A stretch of DNA of 64,000 bases from Chloroflexota bacterium. Its GTDB lineage: Bacteria > Chloroflexota > UBA11872 > VXOZ01. A program made the position numbers and the translations under genes. The notes under the pieces are model-generated. The model made no database searches, was not told the origin of the DNA, and was given only the letters and a program-made list of their open reading frames with translations. Below are positions 6,781 through 58,855 of this stretch, piece after piece; the stretch's first letter is position 1; every line of letters starts with the position of its first letter. The stretch is from positions 3,136,500 through 3,200,499 of the forward strand of contig OZ242329.1 in NCBI GenBank assembly GCA_965208315.1, given 5' to 3'.

Positions 6781-6835
6781 CCGTTCGCCCTGAGTCTGCC
6801 TGTCCTGAGCTTGCCGAAGGGTCGAAGGGTGTACG
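6781..6835. repeat. C-type hairpin repeat (CCGTTCGCCCTGAGCTTGTCGAAGGGTGAACGG)
   Basis: Copies at 6879-6907, 24213-24268, 24295-24332, 45993-46036 and 58671-58703, all intergenic. Confidence 0.85.
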
Positions 6836-6970
6836 GCGAGGCTACTAGATGCATATTGAAGCTCGTATTCACTCTCCGCCCGTACTTCGACAAGCTCAGT
6901 ACGAACGGAAAGACTACTCGCCTTCGCTCTCGAGTAATAGTTCAAAGAAGAACAAGGGGTCACTCATCCC

Positions 6971-9069: not shown

Positions 9070-10278
9070 ATGTCACTTGTGAGAATCACTGACGTTGAAG
9101 CCTATCTCCCCCATCGGCCGCCGGAGCCGCCGAGTTGGCTCTCACACATTCGCGTCGCCAATCCCATGTCGCGCTATCCGGAATACGGCGCGCGGCGGGC
9201 GCTTTGGTTGGGTCCGATGGGACCCGTTATCGTGCGCGTCAAGACGGATGACGGCCTGGAGGGTATCGGACTGGGTGGCGGCGGCAATCCGGGCTGCTTC
9301 ATCGTGGAGCAGCACCTCAAGCGCCTGCTTGTCGGCCAGGACCCGCGCGATACGGAACGGCTCTGGGACCAGATGTTTCGCGCTACGCTGCCGTACGGCC
9401 GCAAGGGGCTGCCCCTCATGGCCATCAGCGGCGTCGACAACGCCCTGTGGGATATCAAAGGCAAGGCCGTCGATCGGCCAGTCTACAAGCTCCTTGGTGG
9501 CGCCACCAAACCTGACATTCCGGTATATGCCACCGGCAATCAATCCGCGGTCTACAAGTCGCTGGGGTTTGTGGGCAACAAAGTCGCCATGCCCTACGGC
9601 CCGTGGGACGGCGTCGAGGGCATGAAGCTGAACGAGAAGCACGTGGCGGATGCCCGTGAGGCGCTGGGTCCCGATATGCTGCTGATGCTGGATTGCTACA
9701 TGGCGTGGGACGTTACTTACACGCTGCGCATGGCTGAGCGGCTGCGCCCGTACGACGTTTTCTGGATCGAAGAAGCGCTGCCGCCCGACGATTACGAGGG
9801 CTACGCCGAACTGCGCCGCCGCATCTCCTGGACGCGCATCACCACTGGCGAGCACGAGTACACGCGCTTTGGCTTCCATGAACTCATTCAACGCGGCTGC
9901 GCCGACATCCTGCAGCCCGATCTCGCGTGGTGCGGCGGCATCACCGAGGCCCATCGCGCGGCACAGATGGCCGAACCCCACGGCATCGACGTCATTCCCC
10001 ACGTGGGCGCTACCGCCAGCTACCATTTCTGCCTTGCCCACGGCAATGCGCCGCTGGTTGAGTTCATCTTCCGGACGGGCGACGGCAGCGAACTCGCGCC
10101 CGTGCAGCCCTTCTTCAGTAACGAGCCGCTGCCGGAAAACGGACGCGTGCGGCCGCCGGAAACTGCCGGATGGGGCAACGAAATCGCGTCGGAGGTTACC
10201 TTGGAGCGCCCGCATCCCACAGCGGAGAGCAAGGAAAAGGCCGAACCCGGCTCGGCCGGTCTGGGTACCGGTGAATAA
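9070..10278 (+). CDS. L-rhamnonate dehydratase-like enolase-superfamily enzyme (MR/MLE), copy 1
   Basis: Resembles E. coli RhmD in blocks: MSRYPEYGARR, GCFIVEQHL, VYKLLGG, MLDCYMAWDV, WIEEALPPDDYEGYAELR, TGEHEY, ILQPDLAWCGGIT, RPHP. An AGGA RBS precedes the ATG at 9070. Confidence 0.85.
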   Translation: MSLVRITDVEAYLPHRPPEPPSWLSHIRVANPMSRYPEYGARRALWLGPMGPVIVRVKTDDGLEGIGLGGGGNPGCFIVEQHLKRLLVGQDPRDTERLWDQMFRATLPYGRKGLPLMAISGVDNALWDIKGKAVDRPVYKLLGGATKPDIPVYATGNQSAVYKSLGFVGNKVAMPYGPWDGVEGMKLNEKHVADAREALGPDMLLMLDCYMAWDVTYTLRMAERLRPYDVFWIEEALPPDDYEGYAELRRRISWTRITTGEHEYTRFGFHELIQRGCADILQPDLAWCGGITEAHRAAQMAEPHGIDVIPHVGATASYHFCLAHGNAPLVEFIFRTGDGSELAPVQPFFSNEPLPENGRVRPPETAGWGNEIASEVTLERPHPTAESKEKAEPGSAGLGTGE

Positions 10279-20520: not shown

Positions 20521-20656
20521 ACAGAGTTTAATCTGTGAAGAATCGGGTCCTGCCGGGTTTGAAGCGTCTGAGAGATTACGATTGCTGCTCTTGACTCAGC
20601 CATGCCGCAACATGGTTCTGCGGCAGTATCGAGTGGGCATAAGTTATTGCGGGTTG

Positions 20657-20690
20657 AGAAGATGGATTCCCGTTTTCACGGGAATGACGG
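20657..20690 (+). repeat. A-type hairpin repeat (GAAGATGGATTCCCG-N-CGGGAATGACGG; ATTCCC-N8-GGGAAT core)
   Basis: Further copies at 21479-21512(-), 27868-27900(+), 33245-33277(+), 34535-34567(+), 36983-37015(-). Confidence 0.85.
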
Positions 20691-20918
20691 AGTGCGGCAT
20701 TGCGGATGTGGGCGTTGGCTCGTTCCTCAGTAGCGCGGGGGCTTGTCCCCCGCATAGCGTCCAGTGCGCGCGGTATTTCAACAGTGCGTTGCCTCTACCT
20801 CATGGCAGAAGGTCATTGCGACGCCGAAACAAGAGACAAACACGAATTTCTCGGCTGCTGCTCCAACTCATGAAGATCAAGATTCCGCTGCAAACCAAGA
20901 ACACCAGGACGGTGAATA

Positions 20919-21431
20919 ATGCCGGTCGCTGAGGATTTTCTCAAGGAATTGAGCATACGCCCATATGAACCACGCGACGAGGCGCGCGTCAAGGAGCTTA
21001 CCATCGCCGCCTTTACGGGTGTTAGCATCGAGAATAACATCGAACACGCTTGGCCTGGGCTCTTGCCCGTTCCCTGGGGCGAACGCAAATGGCCCATGGT
21101 TGCCATGGATCTCACCGCTCATCCGGAAGAGTGCTTTGTGGTCGAATACGATGGTGAAGTAATCGGCTATGCCACAACGCGCATCAACCGCACCAATAGC
21201 GTCGGCCAGATACCCGATATGGCCGTGGACGAGAAGTTTCGCGGCAAGGGGATCGGCCGCATGCTGTTGGAGCACTGCCTGCAGTACTTTCGCGACCAGA
21301 ACCTGATACTTGCCCGCATCGAGACCCTGGACCAGAATCCTATCGGCCGCCACCTCTATCCCGATCTTGGGTTCGAGGAAGTAGCACGGCAGATTTTCTA
21401 CGCCATGCCCTTGGAGCCGCAGGACGAATAG
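20919..21431 (+). CDS. GNAT-family N-acetyltransferase
   Basis: VDEKFRGKGIGRMLLEHCLQYFRD acetyl-CoA binding motif. Confidence 0.75.
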   Translation: MPVAEDFLKELSIRPYEPRDEARVKELTIAAFTGVSIENNIEHAWPGLLPVPWGERKWPMVAMDLTAHPEECFVVEYDGEVIGYATTRINRTNSVGQIPDMAVDEKFRGKGIGRMLLEHCLQYFRDQNLILARIETLDQNPIGRHLYPDLGFEEVARQIFYAMPLEPQDE

Positions 21432-21540
21432 AGGCGGGCACATGGGTGAACGTAAGAAGGTAACGCGAGGAGCCGTCGTCCGTCATTCCCGCGAAAGCGG
21501 GAATCCATCTTTTCTCGCGCCACCTGCACACTTCCCCAAG

Positions 21541-21565
21541 CGGGGGACAAGCCCCCGCGCTACGG
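21541..21565. repeat. D-type hairpin repeat (GGGGACAAGCCCCCGCGCTACGG)
   Basis: Copies at 20733-20759(-), 52992-53013 and 54372-54395. Confidence 0.8.
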
Positions 21566-21757
21566 TGTAGATTCTTGTTAGCTACCGTGTCCCTGGCCTC
21601 TGGCCTCCGGCCTCCGGCGGAGTGACGGAGAACTGCGCAGTGGCTGCGGGTGTGTGCCTGCCCTGCGCTGCAAACGCGCCTCTGCCGCACTTTGGTATGC
21701 TTGAAGGGTAGGCATCCACACCTTGCAAAATCCTCTTTCTAGGAGCAGAACCACAGC

Positions 21758-22288
21758 ATGGCTAACGCACGACCCTCATTGGCTACCCGGCTCGGAAGCT
21801 GGATACGGGTTATTACACTGGCGCTTGCGCTGATTGGTGTCGCTGCGGGAGTTGCGGCGCTGGCCCTCGGCGTCTTCCTTTGGCGCGACCGTCCCACCAT
21901 TCAGACTGCTGCCGACCAGGCCCAGAACGCGGCGCAGGTCACAAGCGTAATAGATACGCGTGTGTCAGGATTGGAGCAGCAAGCTGAGGCACTGAGCCAG
22001 CAAGTGAGTGTGCTGCAGTTCCAGAACCACCTCCTGCGGGCATCGGTGCGCGTCAGCCGGGCACGGGCTCACCTGCGCGAGCAAGAGGGCGGTCTTGCGA
22101 TCCGCGAGTTGGCTGAAGTCGATCGTTCGCTGGCGGCCGCGGCGAAGCTGGGTTCTGCAGGCCAGCAGGAACAGATAGCGGAAATCAAGACTCTCCTTGC
22201 CGACCTGAAGAACATCATCGAGACGGGTACGTTCCCCATTCAAACGTTGGAAGTCGTCGGCGACCGCATCGACGGGATGATCCGGTAA
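21758..22288 (+). CDS. hypothetical membrane-anchored coiled-coil protein
   Basis: N-terminal TM helix, then a Q/A-rich helical region. Confidence 0.4.
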   Translation: MANARPSLATRLGSWIRVITLALALIGVAAGVAALALGVFLWRDRPTIQTAADQAQNAAQVTSVIDTRVSGLEQQAEALSQQVSVLQFQNHLLRASVRVSRARAHLREQEGGLAIRELAEVDRSLAAAAKLGSAGQQEQIAEIKTLLADLKNIIETGTFPIQTLEVVGDRIDGMIR

Positions 22289-24166: not shown

Positions 24167-24394
24167 TCACGAAGATTTACTGGGAATCCTCTTTGCGCCC
24201 GCTACGACTAATCCGTTCGCCCTGAGCTTGCCTGTCCTGAGCTTGCCGAAGGGTCGAAGGGTGAACGGGGCCATGCCCATCCTAGAAGCGTTTCTGTTCG
24301 CCCTAAGCGTGTCGAAAGGTGAGCGGGAACGGGGTTGCAAGGGCGCAAAGGCACCGCCTGGATTCTTCTCTAAGCATCAACCAAGCACTCTCAC

Positions 24395-26915: not shown

Positions 26916-28736
26916 CTATCCCAGAATTATCCCGCGCATCTCCATCGGCTGCGTCATCATCCAGGCGCCGGTAAAGAACAACAGTACAATGATAACCGCC
27001 CAGGGTAGGAGCGCACGAATAGCCCTTGCCATGGAGCCGTGTTGTTTTCTGGCGATGCGATAGCCAACCGTCAGCGAAACGAGCATGCCGAGTTCCAGCA
27101 GCAGTAGTTCAAGCGGCACCAACCAGGAATCTGGCACGATTGCGGCCAACTCCCATTGGGGAGCACCCAGTAGGGTCACGCCGAAGTCCGCGAGAAAGCT
27201 CTGCGTCACGGGAATTGCGGTCAATGCACCGATGAGGAAGTGGAAGCCGTAGTGCGCTAACCACATCCCAAAGCCGATGGGAATGAGGGCAAAGCTGAAG
27301 CGTGTCGCCGTGGCCGCCAGCGTTTCACGGCTCCCGCTGAGGGCGCGGCTGGACCACGCCGCAGCGGTCACCAGCACAAACGGCAGCGCCACGAGGCCCA
27401 CTATAAACAGCACGCCCAGCACCACCGGCTCACTGGTCACACCGAGTTGCCCGGCGAGCCACTGTTCCAGTGCGTAGACCGGCGCTACCATGCCGAAAGC
27501 GTTCACAAAGGCCGCGAACACGAGCACGTACACGAGCGCCGCCAGGTCGATGCGCTGCGCCAGCGCGCCGACGCCGGAGTGCAATTGATCCAGTTTGCGG
27601 AACTCGCTGGTGGGAGCGCGGAGCTGGATGCCGACGTTGTCGTAAGGACAGGCCTGAATGCAGTCCAGGCAGAACGTACAGTCCATGTTGCCGACTTTGC
27701 GTTCTTGGAAGAGCCACAGTTCGCAGCCGGTCTGCACGAGTTGGAGGCCGGCGGGGATGGCGATGTCTCTCTCGGCTTGCTTAGGCTCCTTTATTGAAGA
27801 TTGCTTGCTTTCACGGTGGGAAGATTCAGATGTCGTCGGCGCAGGCTCTTGACCCACTCGCCCTGCAGAAGATGGATTCCCGCTTGCGCGGGAATGACGG
27901 ATGCCGGGCTCACTATTGGAATTTCCTCTTGTAGCGTCCAGCGATTTACCCGGGACCCCAATTCCCTCGCCCAAACTCGGGGGACTCCCTCTCCCTTGAG
28001 GGAGAGGGTCGGGGTGAGGGTGACTCTTTGCAGACCAGCTTAATGCCGACAGAGAAGGTGAGTCCTGCGCGGCGTTCGTCTCGCGGGAGTGACGAAGAAC
28101 GTCCGGCTCAGGCCTCTGCGCATAGCGCCCCTTGATGCAGTCTTTGGTCGGACACGAACCGCAGAGGTCCGGCTGGCGCACCTTCACCTCCAGCGGCGAG
28201 ACCATGCCGTGGACGAAGTGGAACTGTCCGATGGGACAGACGTACTTGCAAAAGGCCGCGCCGCGAAAGATGCCGTCAATGGCGAAGGCCGCCACAAAGT
28301 ACGTCAAGGCCACCCACGCCGTGAGCCAGGGACTCGCCCACAGATCGAAGGCCTCATACGCCCAGAAGAAGACCAAGAGAACGCCAAGCGCCAGCCACTT
28401 GTTGCGAATGACCTTCGGCCAGCGCCGGTTGGCGGGCAGGAGCTTCTTGGCCAGGCGGCGCGGCAGCATGAACGGGCACGCCATGCAAAAGATGTTGCCC
28501 GCAATGAGCAGCGCCAGCACCACCAAGCCCCGCCAATGCACCCAGGGCAACACGCCGGCGAGATTCTTGGGCGCGAGTTGCGGACCCCAGAAACCGTCAT
28601 AGAGGATGAGCGCCGACACTGCCAGCAGCACAGCCTGCATTGATGTCCGGGCATGCTTCCAGCGCAGAAAGCTCCCAATTACGGGCAGGTTGAGAAGATC
28701 GCGCTGGGTCGACGGCTGGGTGCGCGGCACAGCCAC
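26916..28736 (-). CDS. FixG/CcoG-like membrane polyferredoxin (4Fe-4S binding) carrying an in-frame repeat-derived insertion
   Basis: CMACPFMLPRR, FCKYVCPIGQFHFVHG, CGSCPTKDCIKG ... CTFCLDCIQACPYDN, plus TM helices. The low-complexity segment of about 100 aa between the two Cys clusters is encoded by mosaic repeat units at 27868-28023. Confidence 0.65.
   Translation of the reverse strand: MAVPRTQPSTQRDLLNLPVIGSFLRWKHARTSMQAVLLAVSALILYDGFWGPQLAPKNLAGVLPWVHWRGLVVLALLIAGNIFCMACPFMLPRRLAKKLLPANRRWPKVIRNKWLALGVLLVFFWAYEAFDLWASPWLTAWVALTYFVAAFAIDGIFRGAAFCKYVCPIGQFHFVHGMVSPLEVKVRQPDLCGSCPTKDCIKGRYAQRPEPDVLRHSRETNAAQDSPSLSALSWSAKSHPHPDPLPQGRGSPPSLGEGIGVPGKSLDATRGNSNSEPGIRHSRASGNPSSAGRVGQEPAPTTSESSHRESKQSSIKEPKQAERDIAIPAGLQLVQTGCELWLFQERKVGNMDCTFCLDCIQACPYDNVGIQLRAPTSEFRKLDQLHSGVGALAQRIDLAALVYVLVFAAFVNAFGMVAPVYALEQWLAGQLGVTSEPVVLGVLFIVGLVALPFVLVTAAAWSSRALSGSRETLAATATRFSFALIPIGFGMWLAHYGFHFLIGALTAIPVTQSFLADFGVTLLGAPQWELAAIVPDSWLVPLELLLLELGMLVSLTVGYRIARKQHGSMARAIRALLPWAVIIVLLFFTGAWMMTQPMEMRGIILG
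27985..28023. repeat. E-type hairpin repeat (CTCCCTCTCCCTTGAGGGAGAGGGTCGGGGTGAGGGTGA)
   Basis: Second copy at 57178-57215. The copy here lies inside the fixG-like CDS. Confidence 0.8.
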
Positions 28737-33111: not shown

Positions 33112-33153
33112 TGCCTTGGTGGAAAGAGGAGCGTAAAGGCAAGTCAAGCAGTC

Positions 33154-33183
33154 TCCGTCACTCCGGCGAAAGCCGGAGTCCAG
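33154..33183 (+). repeat. B-type hairpin repeat (TCCGTCACTCCGGCGAAAGCCGGAGTCCAG)
   Basis: Copies at 37026-37055(-) and a variant at 21601-21630. Often adjacent to A-type units. Confidence 0.8.
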
Positions 33184-33359
33184 AACTGGTGCAGAGTAGA
33201 GAATCTCGTAGATGTGCAAGCGCGTACAGTCCTGTGTCCAAGAAGAAGATGGTTTCCCGCTTTCGCGGGAATGACGGAGTCTTGTTTTCGTGACAATTCC
33301 GAGCAGACTGAATCCGATTCAAGCGCATCGATCCCAAGCAAGTTAAGGCACGAATTCCT

Positions 33360-34328: not shown

Positions 34329-34680
34329 TGTGTACTGGTATATACGACGCCAGATCTACCGCTCTTTCTCCCAAATCCGTCAACGAATCTCCTGACTTCT
34401 ACAATTCCGAGCGTAGCAAGGAATCTAAGCTGCAAGACTGCTCACGCGCCGCACTTGGTTCATCAAGCTAACGGCGATACCGCAGGGAGGGTTGCCCCCG
34501 CCTCTTGGTACGCCTCGCACAATGTGAGTACCTTGAAGATGGATTCCCGCTTGCGCGGGAATGACGGCGCATAAGGGTATGCACTATTTGCTTCCCCGAA
34601 GTTGACGTATACGTTACGATAATAGGGAAGGCTCCTTTCCTAATCTCCCAAACATAGCAGCAGTAGAGGATTTAAACGTC

Positions 34681-36920: not shown

Positions 36921-37167
36921 GTAATTCGTTGACAGAATTTGCTGCCGATCCGATGTGACAAGCGCGAGAATACGCCTCTTAACCGTCATTCCCGTGAAAA
37001 CGGGAATCCATCTTCTCCGCGTGCCCTGGACTCCGGCGTTCGCCGGAGTGACGGACAAATGGGCGATTTCAAACCTAAAGCAAAGCAATGCAGTCTGGCA
37101 CCTTCCCAGGCGATTACTATGGTGCCCTTCACTCTTGATCTTGGTGCGATTCTTTCAACGAATTACC
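36921..37167. mobile_element. candidate MITE: ~250-bp element with 18-bp terminal inverted repeats enclosing hairpin repeat units
   Basis: TIRs GTAATTCGTTGACAGAAT (36921-36938) and ATTCTTTCAACGAATTAC (37150-37167) match 17/18 as reverse complements. Between them lie one A-type and one B-type repeat unit. Confidence 0.45.
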
Positions 37168-37269
37168 TGAAATTTACAGTAGCGACGGAAAAAGCGTTAG
37201 GGGCGGTTCGCGAACCGCCCCTACGTTTTATTAATGGCAAAAGGTACCGGGTCTGCAACCGCCGAGCGA

Positions 37270-45974: not shown

Positions 45975-46044
45975 CGGGCACAGGCTGTTGAAAGATTCGG
46001 TATCCGTTCATCCTTCGACAAGCTCAGGACGAACGGTTGTCCTG

Positions 46045-47184: not shown

Positions 47185-48054
47185 CTAGCGTGTAGCAATA
47201 ATCACGAGGATCAGGGCTGCCAGTCCGATGCGATAGAGCGCCAGCGGCCAGAGCCTGCCACGCTGCAGGTAGCGCAAGAAGACGCGGATACAGAGATATC
47301 CCACCACCAGCGCGCTGAGAAATCCCACTATGAAGAGCGTGCCGCCGTTGCCGCTCAGGGCCGCGCTATCGAGGTGACGCGCTTCCCAAATGCCCGCGCC
47401 GAAGATTATCGGAGCCATGAGCAGGAACGAGAAACGCGCGGCTTGCACCCGGCTCAAGCCCAGCAGCATGCCCATCGTGATGGTGCTGCCGGAGCGGGAC
47501 ACTCCCGGCACGGTGGCCAGCGCTTGGGCGAATCCGATGAGCAAGGCTTCCCGCCAACCAAGGCTGTCCAGACCTTTTTCACCGCTATGCCGAGCATCCA
47601 CTACCCACAGAATCACGCCAACCCCGGCGAGGGCAGCGGCGATGATCCAGGGCGAACGGAGGACTGTGGCGGCAGCTTCTTCAAGCAGCAGACCGGCGAC
47701 CACCGCGGGCAGCGTGGCGAGCACGAGCAGCCACGCCAGCTTACGCTCGGGCTCGGCTTGGATATTCCGGTCGCGAATAGAGGTTAAGAAAGCAGTGGCG
47801 AGCGACAGAACGTCGCGCCAGAATACCAGCAGGACGGCAAAGAGCGTACCCACGTGCAGCGCTACCGCAAACGGCAGGCTGTTCAGGACCGGCGACGACC
47901 ACCGGAACGCCCAGGGCAGAATGGCAAGGTGGCCGGAACTGGAAATCGGCAGAAATTCGGTGATTCCCTGCACGATCCCAAGTATGATAGCTGCGATCAC
48001 ATCGCTATCCCACCACGCTGCCCCGGCGGCAAGCGAAAAGGTCTGGTATGGCAT
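47185..48054 (-). CDS. uppP: undecaprenyl-diphosphate phosphatase
   Basis: GITEFLPISSSGHL and PGVSRSGSTI motifs. 8 TM helices. Confidence 0.85.
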   Translation of the reverse strand: MPYQTFSLAAGAAWWDSDVIAAIILGIVQGITEFLPISSSGHLAILPWAFRWSSPVLNSLPFAVALHVGTLFAVLLVFWRDVLSLATAFLTSIRDRNIQAEPERKLAWLLVLATLPAVVAGLLLEEAAATVLRSPWIIAAALAGVGVILWVVDARHSGEKGLDSLGWREALLIGFAQALATVPGVSRSGSTITMGMLLGLSRVQAARFSFLLMAPIIFGAGIWEARHLDSAALSGNGGTLFIVGFLSALVVGYLCIRVFLRYLQRGRLWPLALYRIGLAALILVIIATR

Positions 48055-48073: not shown

Positions 48074-48865
48074 CTAGGTCGTGCGGCGCGCCTGCTCGAC
48101 TTCTCTAATCCTGGCTACTATTGCCGCACTCCCCGCGACCACGGAGCCAACTTGCGGCGAGGTCACGGGGGAGCCGTTCATTGCGACATATGCGCCTTCC
48201 GCTTCCTGTACGATCAGCAGCGCGGCGGCCATGTCCCAGGGCTCCAACCGATGGTGAAAGAACCCGCTCAAACGTCCCGCGGCGACGTAGCATAAGGCAA
48301 GCGCCGCCGAACCTGTGATGCGGAGTCCGGCAACCTGAGGTCGCAGCGCCGCAGCGAGGGCCATGCTCTCGGAGGAGGCCGGCTCATTGTGTCCCAGGTC
48401 AAAGCCGAGCAGTGCGTCATGCCAGGCAACGCCTCTGCGCACTGTGATCCTTTCACCATTCCACGTCGCGCCCTTTCCGGCCTCAGCCACAAAGAGATCG
48501 TCCAAGAGGGGATCGTACACAACGCCGACGACCGGTCGCTTGCGTTCCACCAATGCAATGCTCACGGTAAACAGGGGAAAGCGATTGGCAACATTGAGCG
48601 TGCCGTCGACTGGGTCAACGATCCACGTCGGTTCGTCGGACAGCGGACGTGCGGTAAGCTCTTCGGACAGGAAGTGATGGCTGGGAAATGCGGTGCTAAT
48701 TCGCTCCTGTACGAGGTCGTTTACGGCGAGGTCGAGGCCGGTGACATAGTCTCCCCGGCCTTTGGTCGCAACAATCGCAGCGTCGGCTGCATTCTTTCGC
48801 AGATATGCTCCGGATTCTTGCGCTGCGGCCGTAGCGACCGCAACGGGCGACAATTGCATGATCAA
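48074..48865 (-). CDS. inositol monophosphatase family protein
   Basis: WIVDPVDGT and DYVTGLDLA motifs. Confidence 0.8.
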   Translation of the reverse strand: MIMQLSPVAVATAAAQESGAYLRKNAADAAIVATKGRGDYVTGLDLAVNDLVQERISTAFPSHHFLSEELTARPLSDEPTWIVDPVDGTLNVANRFPLFTVSIALVERKRPVVGVVYDPLLDDLFVAEAGKGATWNGERITVRRGVAWHDALLGFDLGHNEPASSESMALAAALRPQVAGLRITGSAALALCYVAAGRLSGFFHHRLEPWDMAAALLIVQEAEGAYVAMNGSPVTSPQVGSVVAGSAAIVARIREVEQARRTT

Positions 48866-49027
48866 GCGTTACCTTTACGCATTGCGGCGCGCGAACCCGG
48901 GAGCGCGGGTGTCTCGCCCGCAGGCTACCATGACGCGAGCCACTGTCGAACTTGCGCATCTACCCCTTGGGGCACTTGGGCTTCTCAGCGCTGTGTGAAA
49001 CGCTGGCGCTGCATTGCAGCACTCACG

Positions 49028-49570
49028 TTAACTCTCTCGTTCATACCCATCGTTCCCATTCGTCACCCGAGCATACGCGCTGCTAAACCGCCAGTCCACG
49101 TTGCGCTGGCAGAGGCCGGCCTTCACAGGATTGGCTTCTATGTAGGCAATGGCTGCGGTGAAATGCCGCTCATTACGGATAAAGCGGTCAAAGTAATCCT
49201 GGCTCCAAAATGGCGCGGAGCAGCCGAAACGCTTGACCGCTTGATGGGCCGTAAATGACTTCCAGCTATGTATGATCGTGGAAACGGCATGCCCGGCTAA
49301 TGGCGCAAAGAGCACGTGAACGTGTGTCGGCATCACAACCCACGCGTGCAAATGGTAGCGCGTGTTGGCGAAATAGAGCAAGGCATCTTCTACCATCGCT
49401 GCAAGCTGTGGGTTGCGTAGAGGCGTATCTTTGGTTTCTTGATCAAGGTACGCTTCAAGCCGGCGGCGCAAGGCGCTCTTTTTTTGCGTTTCGCCAAGAT
49501 AGTTGAGTTCTTGGTTCCATCTAGCGAGTACAGTTGACGGTAATGTTCCGGCAAGCCGGAAAGTTACCAT
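49028..49570 (-). mobile_element. REP-associated tyrosine transposase (RAYT) / IS200-IS605 TnpA-like Y1 transposase gene
   Basis: HUH motif VMPTHVHVLF, catalytic Tyr region, 180 aa. No tnpB is present. The genome is rich in REP-like hairpins. Confidence 0.7.
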
Positions 49571-49753
49571 CTGCGGGATCGCTCCTCCGTCGAAGTGTGG
49601 CAGATAGCCGCGAAAGTGCCAACCGCGTGGCTCAAGGGTGGCAGACGGCAGTGATGCGGATGCGGGCGGGACGCCCGCGTTCCCAGCCGTTTCCTCTCTT
49701 TTATCTTAATCGCAGGTAGCTCCCACCGGCATCCGGGAGTCCATTCCCAGATA

Positions 49754-51859
49754 CTACACGCCCAACTCGTGTGCCAGCCTTGCGGACGTCAAGGCATCTT
49801 CGCGGTAGCGCAGTGCCTGGGGCGCGTTGTACGCGCGGTAGGCAGCGGTCGTACGCCCACACGCCGCCAGCAGCGTTGCCATGCTGATCGGCTCCCGTTG
49901 GTGGTTGTGGGGCGTCCAGATCACGAGGTGGCGCGGGGCGACGAGCGCCGCTACGTCACAAATGTCGAACTCTTGCAGCACGCCAAAGAGGAACCAAGAC
50001 GCATCGTACGCGTAGTATTCGTTCTCCACCAGCCAGCGGTACGAAGCCAGACATTCGTGAGCGATAACTCCCGTCGCGCGCTGGTCCAGCGCGGCGGCAA
50101 ACAGCGCGAGCAGGGCGCCGCCTCCGCATCCTCCGAGCACGACGCTCTTGGCAGTGGTGGCTGGGATGGCCGCCAGCGCGTCCATGCCGCGCATGATGTC
50201 CTGCACGCGCATTCCCAACAGGGGACGAGCCTGCAAGAAGCCCATATAGGCTACTTTGTGGCTGATGTGCCCGTTGTCGCTCGTAGCAGGATTATCCGTG
50301 ATTGGGAAGCCTGTTTCTCCTATACCTCTCGGGTCCAGCGCCAAGGACGTAATGCCGCGCACCGCCAAGGCATCGAGCAACACTCCGGTGCTCTCCGAGT
50401 CCTTGCCCGCCTCGTCTATCCAGAGCAGCACCGTGTCTTCCTGGGCGCCGACCGGGGTGCGCAGGACGCAAGGGATGAGGATGCCGGGCTCCGATTCGAA
50501 GACGACGCGCTCGCGCTGCATGCGTTCACTGGAATCGAGAGGGACACGGGTGAGATCCAAGTCGCCAGACAACGAAGAAGCGGAGAGCACACGGCGCACG
50601 CGCTCGCGCACGACCTGTTGGTACTTCGCGGCCTCGCTCTCGCTGCCGACTTCGGGCAGCGCCGGGTTCATGTCTGCCAGGAGCCTGCGGTTGAGCGTGA
50701 ATACGGTCTCGCTGCCCAATTCGTAGACGTTGCCCGTTTCCGTGCACCAGAGCGTCTCATCCGGCTCTAGCGTGATCTCCGTCTCGCCGCTGCCTTCCTC
50801 TTCTTTGTCGAATAAGCGGTTGAACCACGCGTATGCGGCTTGGCGCATGGGGAGATGGTACCCATGGTTCTGCTCCGCCACGGCCAGCGTGAGGTGGTCG
50901 GGAACGTCCAGGACCGTGTAAACACGTTTCGCGCTCTCGACGGTTTTACGCGCACCCGCTAGCGGAAAGTAGTCGCCGGTGGCAGCGCCTACACAGAGGG
51001 GGCGCGGCGCCACCAACGTCAGGTACTCCGCATGGTCGAGGCCCACGGCCAGTTGCCCGAAGAGATTCTGCTCGGCGTCTTGGGGACCAACGCTATCCAG
51101 GAGCGCGGGAAACCCGGCAATGTAGCAGGTGGGCATGGCCGCCGTCACCCGGTCGTCGAAAGGCACGTAGTAGGCGGTGTTCGTGCCGCCGCCGGATACG
51201 CCGGTGCAGCCGATGCGGGCCGGATCGACGTCATCCCGCGAGAGGAGATAGTCCAGGGCGCGAATGCTATCCCAGATCATGTATTGCGCGAGATTAATCC
51301 CCAGGAGCAAACACTGGGCGCCCATGTTGCTGTGCTCGCGGGTGGACGCGGTGAAAGCCGAATCCTTCTTGACCGGGTCCCAGTACTGCCAGCGCTCGCC
51401 TTGGCCGAGCGGATCGTACGCCAGCACGAGGTAGCCTTTCTCGGCAAAGCCGGCCGGCGTGCGCTGGTAGCTGTCCCACGCTTTGCCGTTCCGGCTGTGG
51501 CCGAGCGGGAAGAGGATGCCCGGATAGGGTGGGGCGTGCCGTTTGGGTACGTAGACGAGTGCGGTCACATAGAAGCGGGGACGGCTCTCGAAGACTATTT
51601 TGTAGATGGTGTAACGTTCTCGTTCCAGCTTGCCTACCGCGCGCGTATTGAGCGGTGTCCTCTCCGGGAACGGCCCGATGGCCTGCTCAAAGTTGGACAT
51701 CAATTGAGCCCGGCGCAGTTCCCATTGTTCTTGGGTCTTCACGGCTGCACGTGACTTCTCAGCATGATCGAACAGCATGTGGGCTTGCTGGATCAAATAG
51801 GTGTGGAGCATGTCCGCGGGGATTGTGTCGGCGGCGTACGGTGCGGTGGATATTGCCAT
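49754..51859 (-). CDS. duplicated alpha/beta-hydrolase protein (acetyl-xylan-esterase / dienelactone-hydrolase-like)
   Basis: GxSxG nucleophile elbow GVSGGG in the first half. The second half has GGCGGG. 701 aa. Confidence 0.55.
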   Translation of the reverse strand: MAISTAPYAADTIPADMLHTYLIQQAHMLFDHAEKSRAAVKTQEQWELRRAQLMSNFEQAIGPFPERTPLNTRAVGKLERERYTIYKIVFESRPRFYVTALVYVPKRHAPPYPGILFPLGHSRNGKAWDSYQRTPAGFAEKGYLVLAYDPLGQGERWQYWDPVKKDSAFTASTREHSNMGAQCLLLGINLAQYMIWDSIRALDYLLSRDDVDPARIGCTGVSGGGTNTAYYVPFDDRVTAAMPTCYIAGFPALLDSVGPQDAEQNLFGQLAVGLDHAEYLTLVAPRPLCVGAATGDYFPLAGARKTVESAKRVYTVLDVPDHLTLAVAEQNHGYHLPMRQAAYAWFNRLFDKEEEGSGETEITLEPDETLWCTETGNVYELGSETVFTLNRRLLADMNPALPEVGSESEAAKYQQVVRERVRRVLSASSLSGDLDLTRVPLDSSERMQRERVVFESEPGILIPCVLRTPVGAQEDTVLLWIDEAGKDSESTGVLLDALAVRGITSLALDPRGIGETGFPITDNPATSDNGHISHKVAYMGFLQARPLLGMRVQDIMRGMDALAAIPATTAKSVVLGGCGGGALLALFAAALDQRATGVIAHECLASYRWLVENEYYAYDASWFLFGVLQEFDICDVAALVAPRHLVIWTPHNHQREPISMATLLAACGRTTAAYRAYNAPQALRYREDALTSARLAHELGV

Positions 51860-52689: not shown

Positions 52690-53165
52690 GGATTGGCCTT
52701 ACGTTGCATAGTTGCGGTCCGTATATATGATAGTACATTGTGGTGCCAAGAGACGGGAGTAAGCCAAATGCTGTCACATTAACCATTGCGGCGGGGAACA
52801 TGGCGCCCTTCGACAAACTCACAGTGTCCCGCATCCCGGTAGCGCAGGCCCTTTGGCAGGCTCAGGACAGGTTTGTAACCCCGTATCGAGTACGGGGCAG
52901 GCTCTGCGCTTGCTGGAGGATCAAGCCTCGTATACCTTCTCTCTCATGCGGCAATGTCGGACAATGTGCCTGGCACTGCTTGCTCAGGCGAGGGACAAGC
53001 CCCCGCGCTACGGTTCGTTAGAGAGGCTCGATCTTGCACGGCAAGAATGCAGCAATCGAGTTCAGGCGCTTTCTTGCGCTCATTTGGCGTTTGACGGCAA
53101 GATATGAGTGTGGACGCCCAGGTAAGGTATCAACTTAGTGAAGCCCGAGGAGTGACGATTCACCG

Positions 53166-54140: not shown

Positions 54141-54538
54141 ATTGCCCTCGAGCGCAAGAGCCGGCAATGCCTCCGCTTTCCTTGGATAGATTCACACCTC
54201 TCCTTGTCGGGCTCCACGGTATCGTTCAGAGTAGGGGCACGATATATCGTGCCCCTGCCGCGCAATCAGCCGTCGAAGTGCATCCGTCACTACCGTGCAA
54301 GTGGGAGTCCAGCTTCTCTCATCATACTGCGCGTGCTTCAGAGGAGAGTGTTGCCTGGACACCATCCGGAGCGGGGACAAGCCTCCGCGCTACAATCCTT
54401 TACCCTACCAAGGCAAGCTCCACTGTCTTGGGTGATTGACTGGATATGCTATCATAATTATTGATGGGCAAGAAAACAGGCAGAACGGGTATGCGTTTGT
54501 GACAAGCGACAATGGCAAGACCATAAAGGGAGCCTACA

Positions 54539-55816
54539 ATGCTTACACGACGTGCCTTGATAGCGAGCACAGCGGCGCTGGCGGCCGGGTGTAGCTCTCT
54601 TGAATCGGCATTCTCCGTGCCGAACCAGCCTCGAACAATCGATCTGACGTGGATTTCGGAGGCGTATGGAGGATTCCGCGAACGGGGACTCGGGCCGAAT
54701 GGTCTTGAAGAAACGCTCAAACATATAGTGGCAGCGCTGGAGGAGGACATCGAGAATCCGAATGGACCTGCAAAGGCACGCTATACCCTGACATCACGCT
54801 TCGTGCGCTCGGAAAATGCGGATCCCCCGCTGCAGAGTATTGATGATGTTATCGCCTGGTACGGAGGCTTGGAGGCCGACCTCCTGTCTGTGCCGCCCTT
54901 TCTTGCCCAATTGCTAGGGGAGCGAGGCGTGATCTTGTCTTTAGACCAGCTAGTCTCAGCAGATGGGTCCGAGTTCACTGACGCCATATACCCCTACCTT
55001 CTCGATCACTTTCGGTCCGATGGCGGGCTCTTTGCTCTGCCGGTAGATGCGGGCCCAACGATGATTCACTACAACCCAAGAGTCTTGTCCCAGGATGACG
55101 TGAGCAGGATAAATGAGGGTTGGCACTGGGATGACATGGTGGAAATTGCCGAGAAACTGACCGAACGCGATGAAAACGGAGAGGTGCAGCGCTGGGGACT
55201 GATCACACAGCATCAAGGATACTGGTGGGCGCTGTGGCAGAACGAAGCGGAGCTGGCCGACCCAATTACGAATCAGTGTCGGCTTCTGGAGCCGGCGGCC
55301 ATTGAAGCGCTGCAATTTTGCCACGACTTGATACACACGCATCAGGTCTCACCGCCTGTGACGAGTTTCGACGCTTGGAGCGCCTTCCAGAGCGGGTCTT
55401 GGCCGCCGATGTTCTTTTCGTCCGTGCAAGGCAATTGGAGTTCGGATAACCGCTGGGCGGCCCTGCCACGGGGCAAGCAGCACAGCGTGCCGGTGATTGG
55501 AAACATGGGTATCGCCATCACCGATAGGGCCCAGAACACGGAGGCAGCGTTTACGGCGCTCAAGGGTCTGGTTGGTGTCATGCAGCGTTTTGTGGAAGTG
55601 CCGGCGCAGAAGGAAGCAATCACCCGGCTGGGCGATTTTCGCAAGACTTTGCTTCCCGCTGAGATTGCGGCTTTCCAGCACTCGATGGAACACGGACGGG
55701 CGATACCCTTTAGCCGAGCCATGTGGACTGCTATGCGCGCGCTAGAGGAGGGCATCGTGCGGGGTGACGACGTTCTTACTGCGGTGAACGACGCCTGTTC
55801 CTCGCTGCAAGCGTAA
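54539..55816 (+). CDS. family-1 solute-binding lipoprotein, paralog A (orphan, Tat-like signal + lipobox)
   Basis: MLTRRALIASTAALAAGCSS. FALPVDAGPTMIHYNP, WGL...WWALWQN. Confidence 0.65.
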   Translation: MLTRRALIASTAALAAGCSSLESAFSVPNQPRTIDLTWISEAYGGFRERGLGPNGLEETLKHIVAALEEDIENPNGPAKARYTLTSRFVRSENADPPLQSIDDVIAWYGGLEADLLSVPPFLAQLLGERGVILSLDQLVSADGSEFTDAIYPYLLDHFRSDGGLFALPVDAGPTMIHYNPRVLSQDDVSRINEGWHWDDMVEIAEKLTERDENGEVQRWGLITQHQGYWWALWQNEAELADPITNQCRLLEPAAIEALQFCHDLIHTHQVSPPVTSFDAWSAFQSGSWPPMFFSSVQGNWSSDNRWAALPRGKQHSVPVIGNMGIAITDRAQNTEAAFTALKGLVGVMQRFVEVPAQKEAITRLGDFRKTLLPAEIAAFQHSMEHGRAIPFSRAMWTAMRALEEGIVRGDDVLTAVNDACSSLQA

Positions 55817-55847
55817 AGCTGACCGCAGATATGAAAGGATCAGTGCC

Positions 55848-57134
55848 ATGCTTACACGACGCGCCTTGCTAGCGAGCACAGCAGCGCTGGCGGCCGGTTG
55901 CGGGCCGCTCAGATCATCTTCGGATCTGCCCAGTGGGCCGGAGGCCGCCGCGCTCACGTGGTACACCTTTTCGTTTAGCGGCCTATTTGTCCCAAATGGC
56001 TCATTTGAACAGCCGCAAGAGAGGCTGCCAAAGATTGTAGCCGCGATGGGGGAGGATGTAGAAAATCCCAACGGCCCCGTGCGCGGAAATTACTCCTTGT
56101 CGCCGCGTGTCATAGGCCGCGACGACTATCCGGATCCGCCGCCCAGGAACCAAGACGAATTTGCGGAGTGGATCGGCGGCATCAATACGGACCTCCTGTC
56201 TATCAGTCCCAGTATGGCGGAATCCTTGGGGAGGCGGGGCGTGATATTGCCCTTAGAGCGCTTCATCGCCGCTGATGATCAGGACCTTGCGGATACGTTT
56301 TACCCTTATGTGCTCGATCAATTTCGAGGAGAGGGTGGGCTTTTCGCTCTGCCAATAGACGCGGATCCGCTTCTGCTCAATTACAACCCGGCTCACTTTG
56401 CGGCGCAGGGGATTCCATCGCCGGACGAGAGCTGGGACTGGGACGACCTGATAGCAAACGCGGTAAAGCTGACCCAGCGGGACGACGACGGGAACGTGAC
56501 GCGTTGGGGGCTCGTCCCGCATTTTCATGGATTGTGGTGGGCGCTATGGCAGAACGAGGCGGAAGTGCTTGGTCCGGTGACTGGGCAGTGCCGGCTGCAA
56601 GAGCCGGCCGCCACCGCAGCCCTACAATTCTGCCATGACCTGTTCCACACCCATCGCGTCGCGCCACCGGTGGCCGGGAGAGAGTTGTGGGATATCTATA
56701 GCTTGCCGCCGGATGTATTTCCAGCCATGTTCTTTAGTCAAGTCACTCGGGCGCATAGATACGAGTACCGTTTGGCAGAATTGCCCCAGGGCAAAGTGCG
56801 CAGCGTGCCGGTCTCTGCCGACATGGGCCTCGCCATTCATGCCCGTTCTGGACAAACCGACGCAGCATATACGGCACTTAAGGGTCTTTTGCAAACGATG
56901 CAACGCTTCGTTGCCGTGCCAGCACAGATAGAGGCCGTCGCGCGGCTGGGAGAGATACGGCCAAGTCTCCTCCCAGAAGAAGTGGCGGCTATTCAGCGGT
57001 CCATGGAGCATGGACGCGCGCTCACGTGGGGCGATGGGGCAGGGCATGCCATGCAGCACGTGGTCGACGGCCTCGCGCGCGGTGATGAAGTGGCTACCGT
57101 GGTGAACGAGGCCTGCGCCATAGTGGAAGAGTAG
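55848..57134 (+). CDS. family-1 solute-binding lipoprotein, paralog B
   Basis: MLTRRALLASTAALAAGCGP. FALPIDADPLLLNYNP. Highly similar to paralog C. Confidence 0.65.
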   Translation: MLTRRALLASTAALAAGCGPLRSSSDLPSGPEAAALTWYTFSFSGLFVPNGSFEQPQERLPKIVAAMGEDVENPNGPVRGNYSLSPRVIGRDDYPDPPPRNQDEFAEWIGGINTDLLSISPSMAESLGRRGVILPLERFIAADDQDLADTFYPYVLDQFRGEGGLFALPIDADPLLLNYNPAHFAAQGIPSPDESWDWDDLIANAVKLTQRDDDGNVTRWGLVPHFHGLWWALWQNEAEVLGPVTGQCRLQEPAATAALQFCHDLFHTHRVAPPVAGRELWDIYSLPPDVFPAMFFSQVTRAHRYEYRLAELPQGKVRSVPVSADMGLAIHARSGQTDAAYTALKGLLQTMQRFVAVPAQIEAVARLGEIRPSLLPEEVAAIQRSMEHGRALTWGDGAGHAMQHVVDGLARGDEVATVVNEACAIVEE

Positions 57135-57348
57135 CGGTACCAGACAGGCCACGATCACGCAAGCGGGAGGCAAATTCTCCCTCTCCCGCTGGGAGAGGGT
57201 TGGGGTGAGGATGAACGTCCGTTGCGATGGTGTTAGGAAACAAGGCCATGCGTGTGCGCGGTCGTTTCTCTCACGTAACGGAACATCTAGGACGAAATTC
57301 GCATCCCGTTGTTTGAAGACCAAAGACGGCACCGAAAGGAGCAGTGCT

Positions 57349-58638
57349 ATGCTTACACGACGCGCCTTGCTAGCGAGCACAGCAGCGCTGGCGGCCGGCT
57401 GCGGGCCGTTCAGGTCTTCATCAGATCTGCCCAGCCAACCGGAGGTGGCCGCGCTCATATGGCGTACGTTTTCGTTTAGCGGTCTTTACTACCAGCCAAG
57501 CTTGACCTTCGAAGAGCCGCAAGAGAAATTGCTGAGAATTGTTGCCACGCTGGAGGAAGACGTAGACAACCCCAACGGTCCTGCAACCGGTCGTTACACG
57601 CTAGCGCCCGGGCTCATCGGCCAAGGAGACTATCCTGACCCTCCGCCCAAGGACGACGATGAGTTTGCCGAATGGATCGACAGCATCGAAACTGACCTCT
57701 TGTCTATCAGTCCCGATATGGCGGAAACCCTAGGGAAGCGGGGCGTCATACTGCCGTTGGAGCGGTTCATCGCAGCCGACGACCAGGACCTCACGGAGAC
57801 GTTCTACCCCTATGTGCTCGATCAATTTCGCGGTGAAGGCGGTCTCTATGCGCTGCCCATAGACGCGAATCCGCTGCTACTCTACTACGACCCCGCCTAT
57901 CTCAGACTTCGAGGTGTTTCTCCACCAGACGAAACGTGGACCTGGGACGACCTAGCAGCCAATGCGCTGGTACTGACCAGGCGCGACGAGGAAGGGCAGG
58001 TGACGCGGTGGGGTCTCATGCCCCACTTTCGCGGGCTCTGGTGGGCGCTGTGGCAGAACGGGGCAGAGGTGAATGACCCGGTGACCGGCCGGTGCCGTTT
58101 GCAGGACCCGGCCGCCACGGAAGCCCTGCAATTCTTTCACGACCTGCTGCATATCCACCAGGTCGCGCCGCCGGTGGGTGGGAGAGAGACCTGGGAGTTT
58201 TACGGCGGGATGGACGATACGGTGCCGGCGATGTTCATTAGTACAGTCAATCATGAACCAAGGTTTGACTACCGCTTGGCAGAGCTGCCGCGCGGCAAGG
58301 TGCGCAGCGTGCCGGTTTCCGCCCACATGGGTCTTGCCATCCACGCGCGCTCGGGGCAGACCGATGCGGCGTACACGGCTTTGAAGGGTCTGTTGCAGAC
58401 GATGCAACGCTTTGTGGGCGTGCCTGCGCAGAGAGAGATGGTAGCGCGGCTGCCAGAGATTTGGCCAACACTGGGGCCCGCGCAATTGACGGCTCTGCAA
58501 CAGTCAATGGAATTCGGACGGGCAGCGCCCTGGGACGACCGCGCGTGGCAGGTCATGCAACATATCGTGGACGGCCTCGCGGGCGGCGATGAAGTGGCGA
58601 CCGTGGTGAACGATGCATGCGCAGTGCTGGAGGAATAG
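57349..58638 (+). CDS. family-1 solute-binding lipoprotein, paralog C
   Basis: MLTRRALLASTAALAAGCGP. YALPIDANPLLLYYDP. AAAGGA RBS. Confidence 0.65.
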   Translation: MLTRRALLASTAALAAGCGPFRSSSDLPSQPEVAALIWRTFSFSGLYYQPSLTFEEPQEKLLRIVATLEEDVDNPNGPATGRYTLAPGLIGQGDYPDPPPKDDDEFAEWIDSIETDLLSISPDMAETLGKRGVILPLERFIAADDQDLTETFYPYVLDQFRGEGGLYALPIDANPLLLYYDPAYLRLRGVSPPDETWTWDDLAANALVLTRRDEEGQVTRWGLMPHFRGLWWALWQNGAEVNDPVTGRCRLQDPAATEALQFFHDLLHIHQVAPPVGGRETWEFYGGMDDTVPAMFISTVNHEPRFDYRLAELPRGKVRSVPVSAHMGLAIHARSGQTDAAYTALKGLLQTMQRFVGVPAQREMVARLPEIWPTLGPAQLTALQQSMEFGRAAPWDDRAWQVMQHIVDGLAGGDEVATVVNDACAVLEE

Positions 58639-58855
58639 CAGTAACCTGAGAGGATATCTGGAAAGAGTATCCGTTCGGCCTGAGCTTGTCGAAGGATGAA
58701 CGGATACTGTCTTTGCGAACGGATTATTGTTTCCGTACGCGTTGCGCTTGCTTCTCTTGGGCCGACAAAAGAGGCCCCAGTCTGAACGGCGCTTGGCTGA
58801 GCGCTTACGAGACACTCTTGAGAACCGAGCGCAACCTTGCGCTGCGGAGCAGTGG

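Follow-up and report, generated by a model that had tools for sequence, protein, structure and literature searches.

The locus at positions 48897-49686 of the 64,000-nucleotide Chloroflexota stretch analysed here (contig OZ242329.1; the whole 64-kb stretch is called the window) encodes a REP-associated tyrosine transposase (RAYT) between two inverted repetitive extragenic palindromic (REP) hairpins. We read this locus, with a probability of about 0.7, as a REPtron: a vertically inherited RAYT gene, present once, stands between its cognate REPs and has probably been disabled or altered in the window strain by a 72-nt deletion. The evidence comprises membership of the protein family, the architecture and covariation of the hairpins, conserved synteny, purifying selection and the deletion itself.

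Family assignment of the protein

The gene is called as a 180-aa open reading frame (ORF) on the minus strand (49028..49570; ATG at 49568-49570, TAA at 49028-49030), which encodes the whole predicted globular Y1/HUH core from β1 to the C-terminus. The product is a RAYT, that is, a class-2 TnpA_Y1 HUH/Tyr nuclease, and not an IS200 transposase. It scores 31.4 bits against Pfam Y1_Tnp (cut-off 23) and passes the NCBIfam RAYT equivalog NF047646 (REP_Tyr_transpos) by a small margin (85.1 bits, cut-off 80); the score for the IS200 equivalog NF033573, 22.4 bits, lies below the cut-off of 55. The sole significant sequence match in the PDB is Escherichia coli TnpA_REP (4ER8, E 2e-8).

The original prediction, made from the sequence alone, had described a 180-aa ORF with an HUH motif and a Tyr region, and both are present as described. 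The ORF translation and an alignment of 88 sequences place the His-Val-His motif, within THVHVLF, at 49316-49324 on the minus strand. The Tyr motif YIEANP (49127-49144, minus strand) contains the catalytic Tyr (49142-49144) and the class-2 signature Y---NP, class 1 being marked by Y---Q (PMC6006769). H129, H131 and Y189 are conserved in 87-88 of the 88 relatives, N193 in 87 and P194 in all 88. The metal-binding and catalytic residues of E. coli TnpA_REP, H59, H61, N119 and Y115 (PMC3479197), correspond here to H129, H131, N193 and Y189. At the positions of E. coli E100 and H101 the protein has Asp and Arg, as in Quentin subclasses 2.5 and 2.7, and the NHVH, W[QES], YIE[ASN]NP and 'SS' tail motifs of the family match parts of subclasses 2.6 and 2.7, a comparison made with motif tables rather than reference sequences.

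An AlphaFold2 model of the 226-aa form of the protein (see below; pLDDT 85.8, with residues 1-40 of low confidence) places β1 at residues 46-52, beginning exactly at the Met of the window ORF. The top Foldseek match of the predicted model is 4ER8_A (E 1.8e-9, TMt 0.69, root-mean-square deviation (rmsd) 2.8 Å), and the TnpA proteins of IS200, IS608 and ISDra2 match it with E ~1e-4 and an rmsd of 8-15 Å. The fold as modelled is thus nearer to the monomeric TnpA_REP than to the domain-swapped IS200/IS605 TnpA.

A profile search recovered 2,356 cluster representatives at E<=1e-30, which indicates that the RAYT clade is large. Some family members (P0122, P0130, P0132, P0140 and P0234) reach 450-1170 aa and carry the RAYT domain internally or at the C-terminus; they are possibly fusions, or products of read-through across REPs.

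Inverted hairpins flank the gene

The 5' REP (CTGGGAACGCGGGCGTCCCGCCCGCA, 26 nt) lies at 49661-49686 on the minus strand, in the gene sense, and consists of a GGAAC foot, a GCGGGCG/CGCCCGC stem and a TCC loop. It sits inside the open leader frame, where it is read as GNAGVPPA. The 3' REP (CCGGGAGCGCGGGTGTCTCGCCCGCA, 26 nt) is inverted, lying at 48897-48922 on the plus strand with one G-T stem mismatch, and is positioned 106 nt beyond the RAYT stop codon and 32 nt ahead of the start of an inositol monophosphatase (IMPase) gene. The RAYT gene is thereby bracketed by a 24-nt inverted pair with 88% complementarity. Both copies are hairpins with the foot GGA(A/G)C, a 7-bp stem starting with GC and the loop TCC or TCT, and the cognate REP unit type can be written as CYGGGARCGCGGGYGTCYCGCCCGCA. 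The window contains exactly two occurrences of this pattern, against 0 expected by chance.

An inverted REP pair around a RAYT gene makes the locus a REPtron. The original prediction had proposed that flanking inverted REP copies be sought, and the search is positive; its broader claim, that the gene is a lone RAYT rather than part of an ordinary IS200/IS605 element, holds. Beyond the two flanking copies, neither a search allowing up to five mismatches nor a structure-aware detector found a credible cognate REP in the window. Two candidates, at 22081 and 25054, were set aside as chance matches, each having one stem mismatch and a loop (CGCC and TGGC, respectively) unlike the TCY of the family.

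Hairpin-gene association in distant homologues

For the flank analysis, 80 metagenomic loci encoding relatives at 43-56% identity were fetched. Hairpin units of the architecture described above lie within 350 nt of the RAYT gene in 77 of the 80. A plus-oriented unit is found upstream in 70 and a minus-oriented unit downstream in 68, and the two occur together in 55 of the 64 loci for which both flanks are available. The upstream and downstream stems are identical in 46 of 61 loci.

Pairing was assessed with a head-motif test, in which sites were selected on GGANCGC alone, independently of pairing. Of 339 occurrences of GGANCGC in the flanks, 244 precede a 7-bp stem that has no more than one mismatch, and 225 of these stems are perfect. 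The corresponding controls are 2/55 in the rest of the window, 0/26 inside genes and 12/141 in those parts of the loci that lie more than 600 nt away (139 kb). Complementarity is kept across 37 distinct stem variants, among them GCGGGCG, GCGGACG, GCCCGCA, GCAGACA and GCACGCT. On 41 distinct 26-mers, 97.9% of the cells are paired, compared with 30-47% when the 3' partner is slid, and compensatory changes affect four of the seven stem pairs (66 cells), a level reached by none of 500 shuffles. The units used for covariation had been pre-selected for at most one mismatch, so the head-motif test serves as the unbiased control.

Conservation within the hairpin covers its foot, the GC with which the stem begins and the TCY loop, and extends to a C-T/C-G immediately 5' of the foot. 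Feet are of the GGNNC type (GGAGC 161, GGACC 43, GGAAC 15, GGGGC 11 and GGATC 5 across the 80 loci), and the 30 commonest feet in these flanks do not include GTAGC. Judged from these sequence patterns, the hairpin with a GGAGC foot and a TCY loop is the cognate element of this RAYT clade.

At many of the metagenomic loci (L134, L140, L148, L150, L152, L163, L168, L180, L198 and L205) the REP runs straight into another conserved module, (A)ATGAGCGCG[ACT]AGCGCGAAC; the window REPs are without it.

Vertical inheritance and purifying selection

The RAYT gene shares its strand with its neighbours, an AXE1-like hydrolase of 701 aa (49754..51859), the IMPase (48074..48865) and BacA/UppP (47185..48054). 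No tnpB adjoins it among the neighbouring ORFs examined, which bears out the original prediction on this point, and a tblastn search of the window gave no further Y1 homologue. In relatives with 82-93% protein identity the gene order is SBPs, GNAT, hydrolase, RAYT, IMPase, BacA, ASD, and this synteny is identical in six other strains or lineages. Exact-protein look-ups return the syntenic site only.

RAYT identity among three lineages is 83-84%, and that of the neighbouring proteins 81-87%. The dN/dS ratio (Nei-Gojobori) is 0.17-0.19 for the RAYT gene and 0.07-0.12 for the neighbours. Vertical inheritance combined with purifying selection is the behaviour described for domesticated RAYTs (PMC5581495), unlike that of an insertion sequence. 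Within the window the RAYT gene is present as a single copy; it is vertically inherited and under purifying selection. As a separate observation, the dS of the RAYT gene (0.45-0.56; 49028-49627 compared with L006 and L007) is about half the 0.85-1.5 of three neighbours, the amino-acid identities being similar.

A recent deletion has removed the start codon

The reading frame of the 180-aa ORF remains open for a further 45 codons upstream (49571..49705, minus strand) as far as an in-frame TAA at 49706-49708. This extension, a remnant of an N-terminal leader and arm, encodes ...PRGWHFRGYLPHFDGGAIPQ and contains no ATG, GTG or TTG. The arm codons, PRGWHFRGYLPHFDGG, lie at 49583..49630 on the minus strand. 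Alignments of 11 and of 88 homologues show no or almost no variation in the arm, W-H-x-R-G-Y-L-P-H-F-D-G-G, and W30, R33, H38, F39 and G42 are conserved in all 88 sequences. A database protein (P0001, NCBI 'transposase [Chloroflexota bacterium]') has 226 aa, is 100% identical over the shared part and starts MKRKKRPPGNAGVPPASA... Since the open upstream frame carries the invariant arm of the family, the 180-aa ORF is a 5'-truncated version of a gene for ~226 aa.

Alignment with sister contigs (L002-L005, 99.9-99.96% identical to the window) locates the junction of a 72-nt deletion at 49684..49690 on the minus strand. The closest comparison, with L003, shows five mismatches over 12.6 kb and an identical 600-nt ORF. 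The sister strains carry two tandem 68-nt hairpin-plus-leader units upstream, with the ATG between the two hairpins; the window allele lacks one 68-nt unit plus 4 nt, and the ATG is gone with them. An identical contig from a metagenome-assembled genome (MAG), L001, shares the deletion. A canonical start is found 27-57 codons upstream of the arm in all six of the other strains or lineages (L003, L208, L209, L210, L006 and L007), so the window allele represents a recent, derived loss of the start codon. Upstream hairpin units number from one to four in these six, and the proximal unit is always in frame, as PGNAGV(S/P)PAS. In L209 (1347-1410) two upstream REP units 39 nt apart are both in frame, giving a duplicated leader peptide, PGNAGVSPASAPLPGIAGVSPATASLP.

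With the ATG deleted, the N-terminal arm cannot be translated from a canonical start in the window strain, and the sequence suggests that the gene is probably disabled or altered there. ACG or CTG starts in the upstream frame were judged, by eye, to be unlikely, as there is no usable Shine-Dalgarno sequence at a workable distance. Both breakpoints of the deletion can be placed after CT. Replication slippage between the direct repeats accounts for it as well as would cutting at CT by the RAYT.

Distribution of the hairpin in other genomes

Species-representative genomes were scanned with a 23-mer pattern derived from the two window copies, with three degenerate positions, and at least 120 stretches matched. 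The matches listed span Planctomycetota, Verrucomicrobiota, Acidobacteriota, Chloroflexota, Alpha- and Gammaproteobacteria, Actinomycetes, Desulfobacterota, Sumerlaeota, Binatia and others; no stretch from the window's own species is among the 120 listed. Only four of the 120 listed contain a RAYT homologue (in Stellaceae, Planctomycetales, Actinomycetes and a gammaproteobacterium), and all four share the REP-gene-REP layout. The remaining listed stretches carry dispersed single units or convergent doublets, 23 of 24 close pairs being convergent, which makes these true dispersed REPs and REPIN-like doublets in other genomes.

Some convergent doublets bound elements of ~200 nt with conserved interiors. 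Those bounded by convergent GGGAGC-footed REPs come from Terriglobia and 'Versatilivorator' genomes, fall into two families and resemble derivatives of the type of miniature inverted-repeat transposable elements or REPINs (L010 164-361, L054 930-1128, L102 6086-6283 and L119 2972-3169; L059 664-859, L076 7039-7230 and L107 934-1131). The 23-mer also matches MAGs labelled Akkermansia, Klebsiella and Defluviitaleaceae (L047, L115, L114 and L063), where horizontal transfer or mis-binned contigs are possible.

Proposed mechanism

REP binding, REP cleavage and the functional effect of the truncation are proposed by analogy to E. coli TnpA_REP (PMC3479197). The full-length protein of ~226 aa would bind, as a monomer, the folded hairpin on single-stranded DNA, reading the stem base and the unpaired 5' foot, in this case GGAGC/GGAAC rather than GTAG. 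The His-x-His motif and Tyr189 would cut and rejoin DNA near REPs, which would be rearranged or copied as a result. Cutting would take place at a dinucleotide set by the foot bases and would leave a 5'-phosphotyrosine from which strand transfer may follow; in this clade a candidate cut site is the conserved CT that immediately precedes the foot on its 5' side. In the lineage of the window, visible REPs are restricted to the gene's own flanks, with the upstream REP inside the N-terminal leader, and the number of REP-plus-start-codon units varies between lineages (1 to 4 copies). The window strain, having lost one unit and the ATG in the recent 72-nt deletion, would at best make the 180-aa core from the internal ATG.

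Weighing the alternatives

Several observations weigh against the reading of the locus as a REPtron with a disabled or altered gene. Ala takes the place of H123, the third His ligand in E. coli, and the residue preceding the HUH motif is Thr in this Chloroflexota lineage only, Asn being present in 84 of the 88 relatives. Dispersed cognate REPs are absent from the 64-kb window and from 2 x 20 kb of relatives, so that a REP population in this genome is not demonstrated by the DNA sampled. The folding energies of the GC-rich 38-mers are unexceptional (z -1.7 and -0.7 compared with shuffles), and because they are indistinguishable from the shuffles, we rely on covariation instead. The feet, GGAAC and GGAGC, also differ from the canonical GT[AG]G; for subclasses 2.6 and 3, 'atypical' REPs without GTAG have been admitted (PMC6006769). 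Finally, in losing the invariant arm the predicted 180-aa product gives up none of the core's predicted secondary-structure elements, and GGAGGA lies 12 nt before its ATG; complete core elements and this nearby GGAGGA make some activity of the product possible. In E. coli, deleting the C-terminal tail raises TnpA_REP activity, and a truncated protein need not therefore be a dead one.

The absence of dispersed cognate REPs in the 64 kb and 40 kb sampled, together with the lineage-specific Thr at a near-invariant Asn position, favours a different explanation, namely that the protein is a nuclease or DNA-binding protein domesticated by the host and no longer engaged in spreading REPs, the hairpins and the upstream array regulating only the RAYT gene itself or IMPase-BacA. 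Strict synteny, purifying selection and an upstream REP that always lies in frame within the leader, PGNAGV(S/P)PAS, are in keeping with it. Against these stand the small sample, ~3% of a roughly 3-Mb genome, the retention of all the catalytic residues (His, His, Tyr and Asn) and the dispersed REP populations and REP doublets that relatives in other phyla clearly possess. We regard domestication of this kind as unlikely, while giving it real weight.

A more far-reaching proposal, which we consider doubtful and put forward as speculation, is that the upstream REP-plus-start unit acts as a fast copy-number on/off switch, one or two units being present in strains that differ by five single-nucleotide polymorphisms in 12.6 kb. 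The switch would perhaps be RAYT-made, a rearrangement that is possible because both breakpoints follow CT. The N-terminal arm might replace the C-terminal metal-binding and auto-inhibitory tail of the E. coli protein, and the whole would form a distinct pan-bacterial REP-RAYT system. If this were true, a GGAGC-footed REP common to >8 phyla, with a regulatory logic of its own, would mark it as such.

Other hairpin families of the window

The description of the DNA as 'REP-rich' in the original prediction is fair for the window, which holds several families of hairpin repeats. Family A/A', tagged with CGTC (CGTCATTCCCGCGAAAGCGGGAATCCA and CGTCACTCCGGCGAAAGCCGGAGTCCA), has nine copies. Family B (CCGTTCG.CCTGAGCTTGTCGAAGG.TGAACGG) has four to six copies in both orientations, at 6781-6908, 24213-24326, 46004-46036, 52849-52871 and 58671-58703, and is unrelated to the RAYT hairpin. 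Family C is tagged with GTAG (GTAGCGCGGGGGCTTGTCCCCCGC, with the layout GTAGC-GCGGGGG-CTTGT-CCCCCGC) and has four copies, and family D (TAGGGGCGGTTCGCGAACCGCCCCTA) has two.

The original prediction went on to suggest that the gene may spread one of these families. An active RAYT disseminating an abundant family of the window, whether A/A', B, C or D, could draw on the presence of several families with 2-9 copies each, and family C does share the foot-plus-GC-stem layout of the cognate REP, its foot differing by one base. Nevertheless, none of the abundant families flanks the RAYT gene, and the cognate type is found only at its flanks; the feet at the 80 homologous loci are GGNNC, with GTAGC missing from the 30 commonest. 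CGTC REPs have been reported without an associated tyrosine transposase (PMC3733652), Table S1 of PMC6006769 places GTAGGGGCGG-type REPs with subclass 2.4, and the start codon of the gene is gone in the window strain. A cognate hairpin confined to the flanks, and abundant families with other tags, leave the suggestion unsupported. It is very improbable that the gene is such a disseminator, and on the evidence the RAYT appears to serve none of the abundant hairpin families of the window.

Hardly credible at all is an ordinary IS200-type insertion sequence (tnpA only) with the hairpins as its left and right ends: the Y1 HUH transposase fold, a hairpin at each end and a very large family, whose patchy occurrence across phyla implies horizontal transfer over long time scales, would suit it, but the IS200 model score is far under its cut-off, the signature is Y---NP and not Y---Q (PMC6006769), the hairpins are inverted instead of lying on the same strand, the chromosomal site is the same across lineages with dS 0.45-1.5, dN/dS is 0.18 with exact-protein look-ups giving the syntenic site only, and 116 of the 120 REP-bearing stretches listed are without a RAYT gene.

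Comparison with known systems

The window RAYT is an ordinary representative of the known RAYT/REPtron kind. The E. coli K-12 REPtron (TnpA_REP/RayT/YafM, 4ER8; Quentin subclass 2.2, Bertels group 2) is the best match to it in both sequence and structure. The two have in common an HUH and Tyr Y1 nuclease with Y---NP, inverted flanking REP hairpins, a single-copy gene and vertical inheritance, and the equivalents of E. coli W94 and R104 are kept as W168 and R178. Identity between the proteins is, however, only ~18-28%. The foot is GGAGC/GGAAC in place of GTAG, and the stem is short, perfect and 7 bp long with a 3-nt loop, whereas that of the E. coli REP is long and bulged. Unlike the E. coli protein, the RAYT described here has the invariant N-terminal WHxRGYLPHFDGG arm, Ala at the position of H123 and no long C-terminal tail with E161; also unlike E. 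coli, the DNA sampled here shows no dispersed REP population.

Subclass 2.6 REPtrons, recorded with 'atypical secondary structures' (PMC6006769), share the REP architecture, with nearly the same sequence. For the Aequorivita sublithincola gene (AFL81591.1), Table S1 of that paper gives the REPs GCTGG-CGCGGGCG-TCC-CGCCCGTG and GCTAG-CGCGAGCG-TCC-CGCTCGTG. A literature search with the REP sequence of the locus gave no match in main texts, the near-match being confined to this supplementary table; the REP type has thus already been recorded, as an 'atypical secondary structure'. An NH[LIV]H-type HUH motif and the 'SS' tail motif are also shared. The Tyr motif differs, being YIE[ASN]NP here and YIH[QN]NP in subclass 2.6, and the 21-aa insertion between αC and β4 of that subclass is not evident in the alignment to 4ER8. 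Subclass 2.6 is found mainly in Bacteroidetes, and its protein was compared with the window RAYT on the basis of motif tables.

The tnpA-only IS200 elements of the IS200/IS605 family resemble the locus in superfamily fold, catalytic residues, small gene size, subterminal hairpins and the lack of TnpB. They differ in the Tyr motif, in hairpins that lie on the same strand rather than inverted, and in the IS200 hidden Markov model, which the window protein fails; the chromosomal site is fixed here and there are no multiple identical copies. TIRYTs and TIRtrons (Di Nocera et al. 2013, PMC3733652) likewise place a RAYT-like gene between inverted repeats that are capable of self-complementarity and lack the GTAG tag, and elements of this type are known from Acidobacteria and other non-proteobacterial phyla (PMC3733652). 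By contrast, the hairpins described here are short and REP-sized, are dispersed singly and as doublets in other genomes, and lack the TIR consensus GGGGWSAS.

The general picture of RAYT biology is unchanged by this locus. What it adds is one particular type of hairpin (foot GGAGC, stem GC-N5, loop TCY) tied to a large RAYT clade by strong covariation and by association in 77 of 80 loci. With it, well-documented pairs of REP and RAYT reach past the GTAG systems of proteobacteria into Chloroflexota and many other phyla. As regards annotation, the 180-aa call represents a truncated gene, and translated REPs (GNAGVPPA, GGTPALP and similar) account for the odd N- and C-terminal tails of many proteins in the databases. 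A different origin has to be assumed for the remaining hairpin families of this genome.

Further features of the window

A promoter scan of the locus found no sigma-70-like promoter, and terminator-like matches were at chance level; Rfam has no match across 48600-50000. An inverted composite cluster of families A and C at 20656-21638 was considered as a possible bracket around another transposase and was ruled out, since it brackets a GNAT-like ORF of 170 aa (20919..21431). Mixed islands, in which CGTC-tagged A/A' often lies beside GTAG-tagged C or D, are located at 20656-20753, 21472-21638, 27867-27903, 33152-33280, 34534-34570 and 36983-37223. At 54524-58340 a gene is present in three tandem paralogous copies, which are 61-86% identical and recur every ~1.3-1.5 kb, and further paralogous pairs are present at 9229/10580 and 15510/17363.

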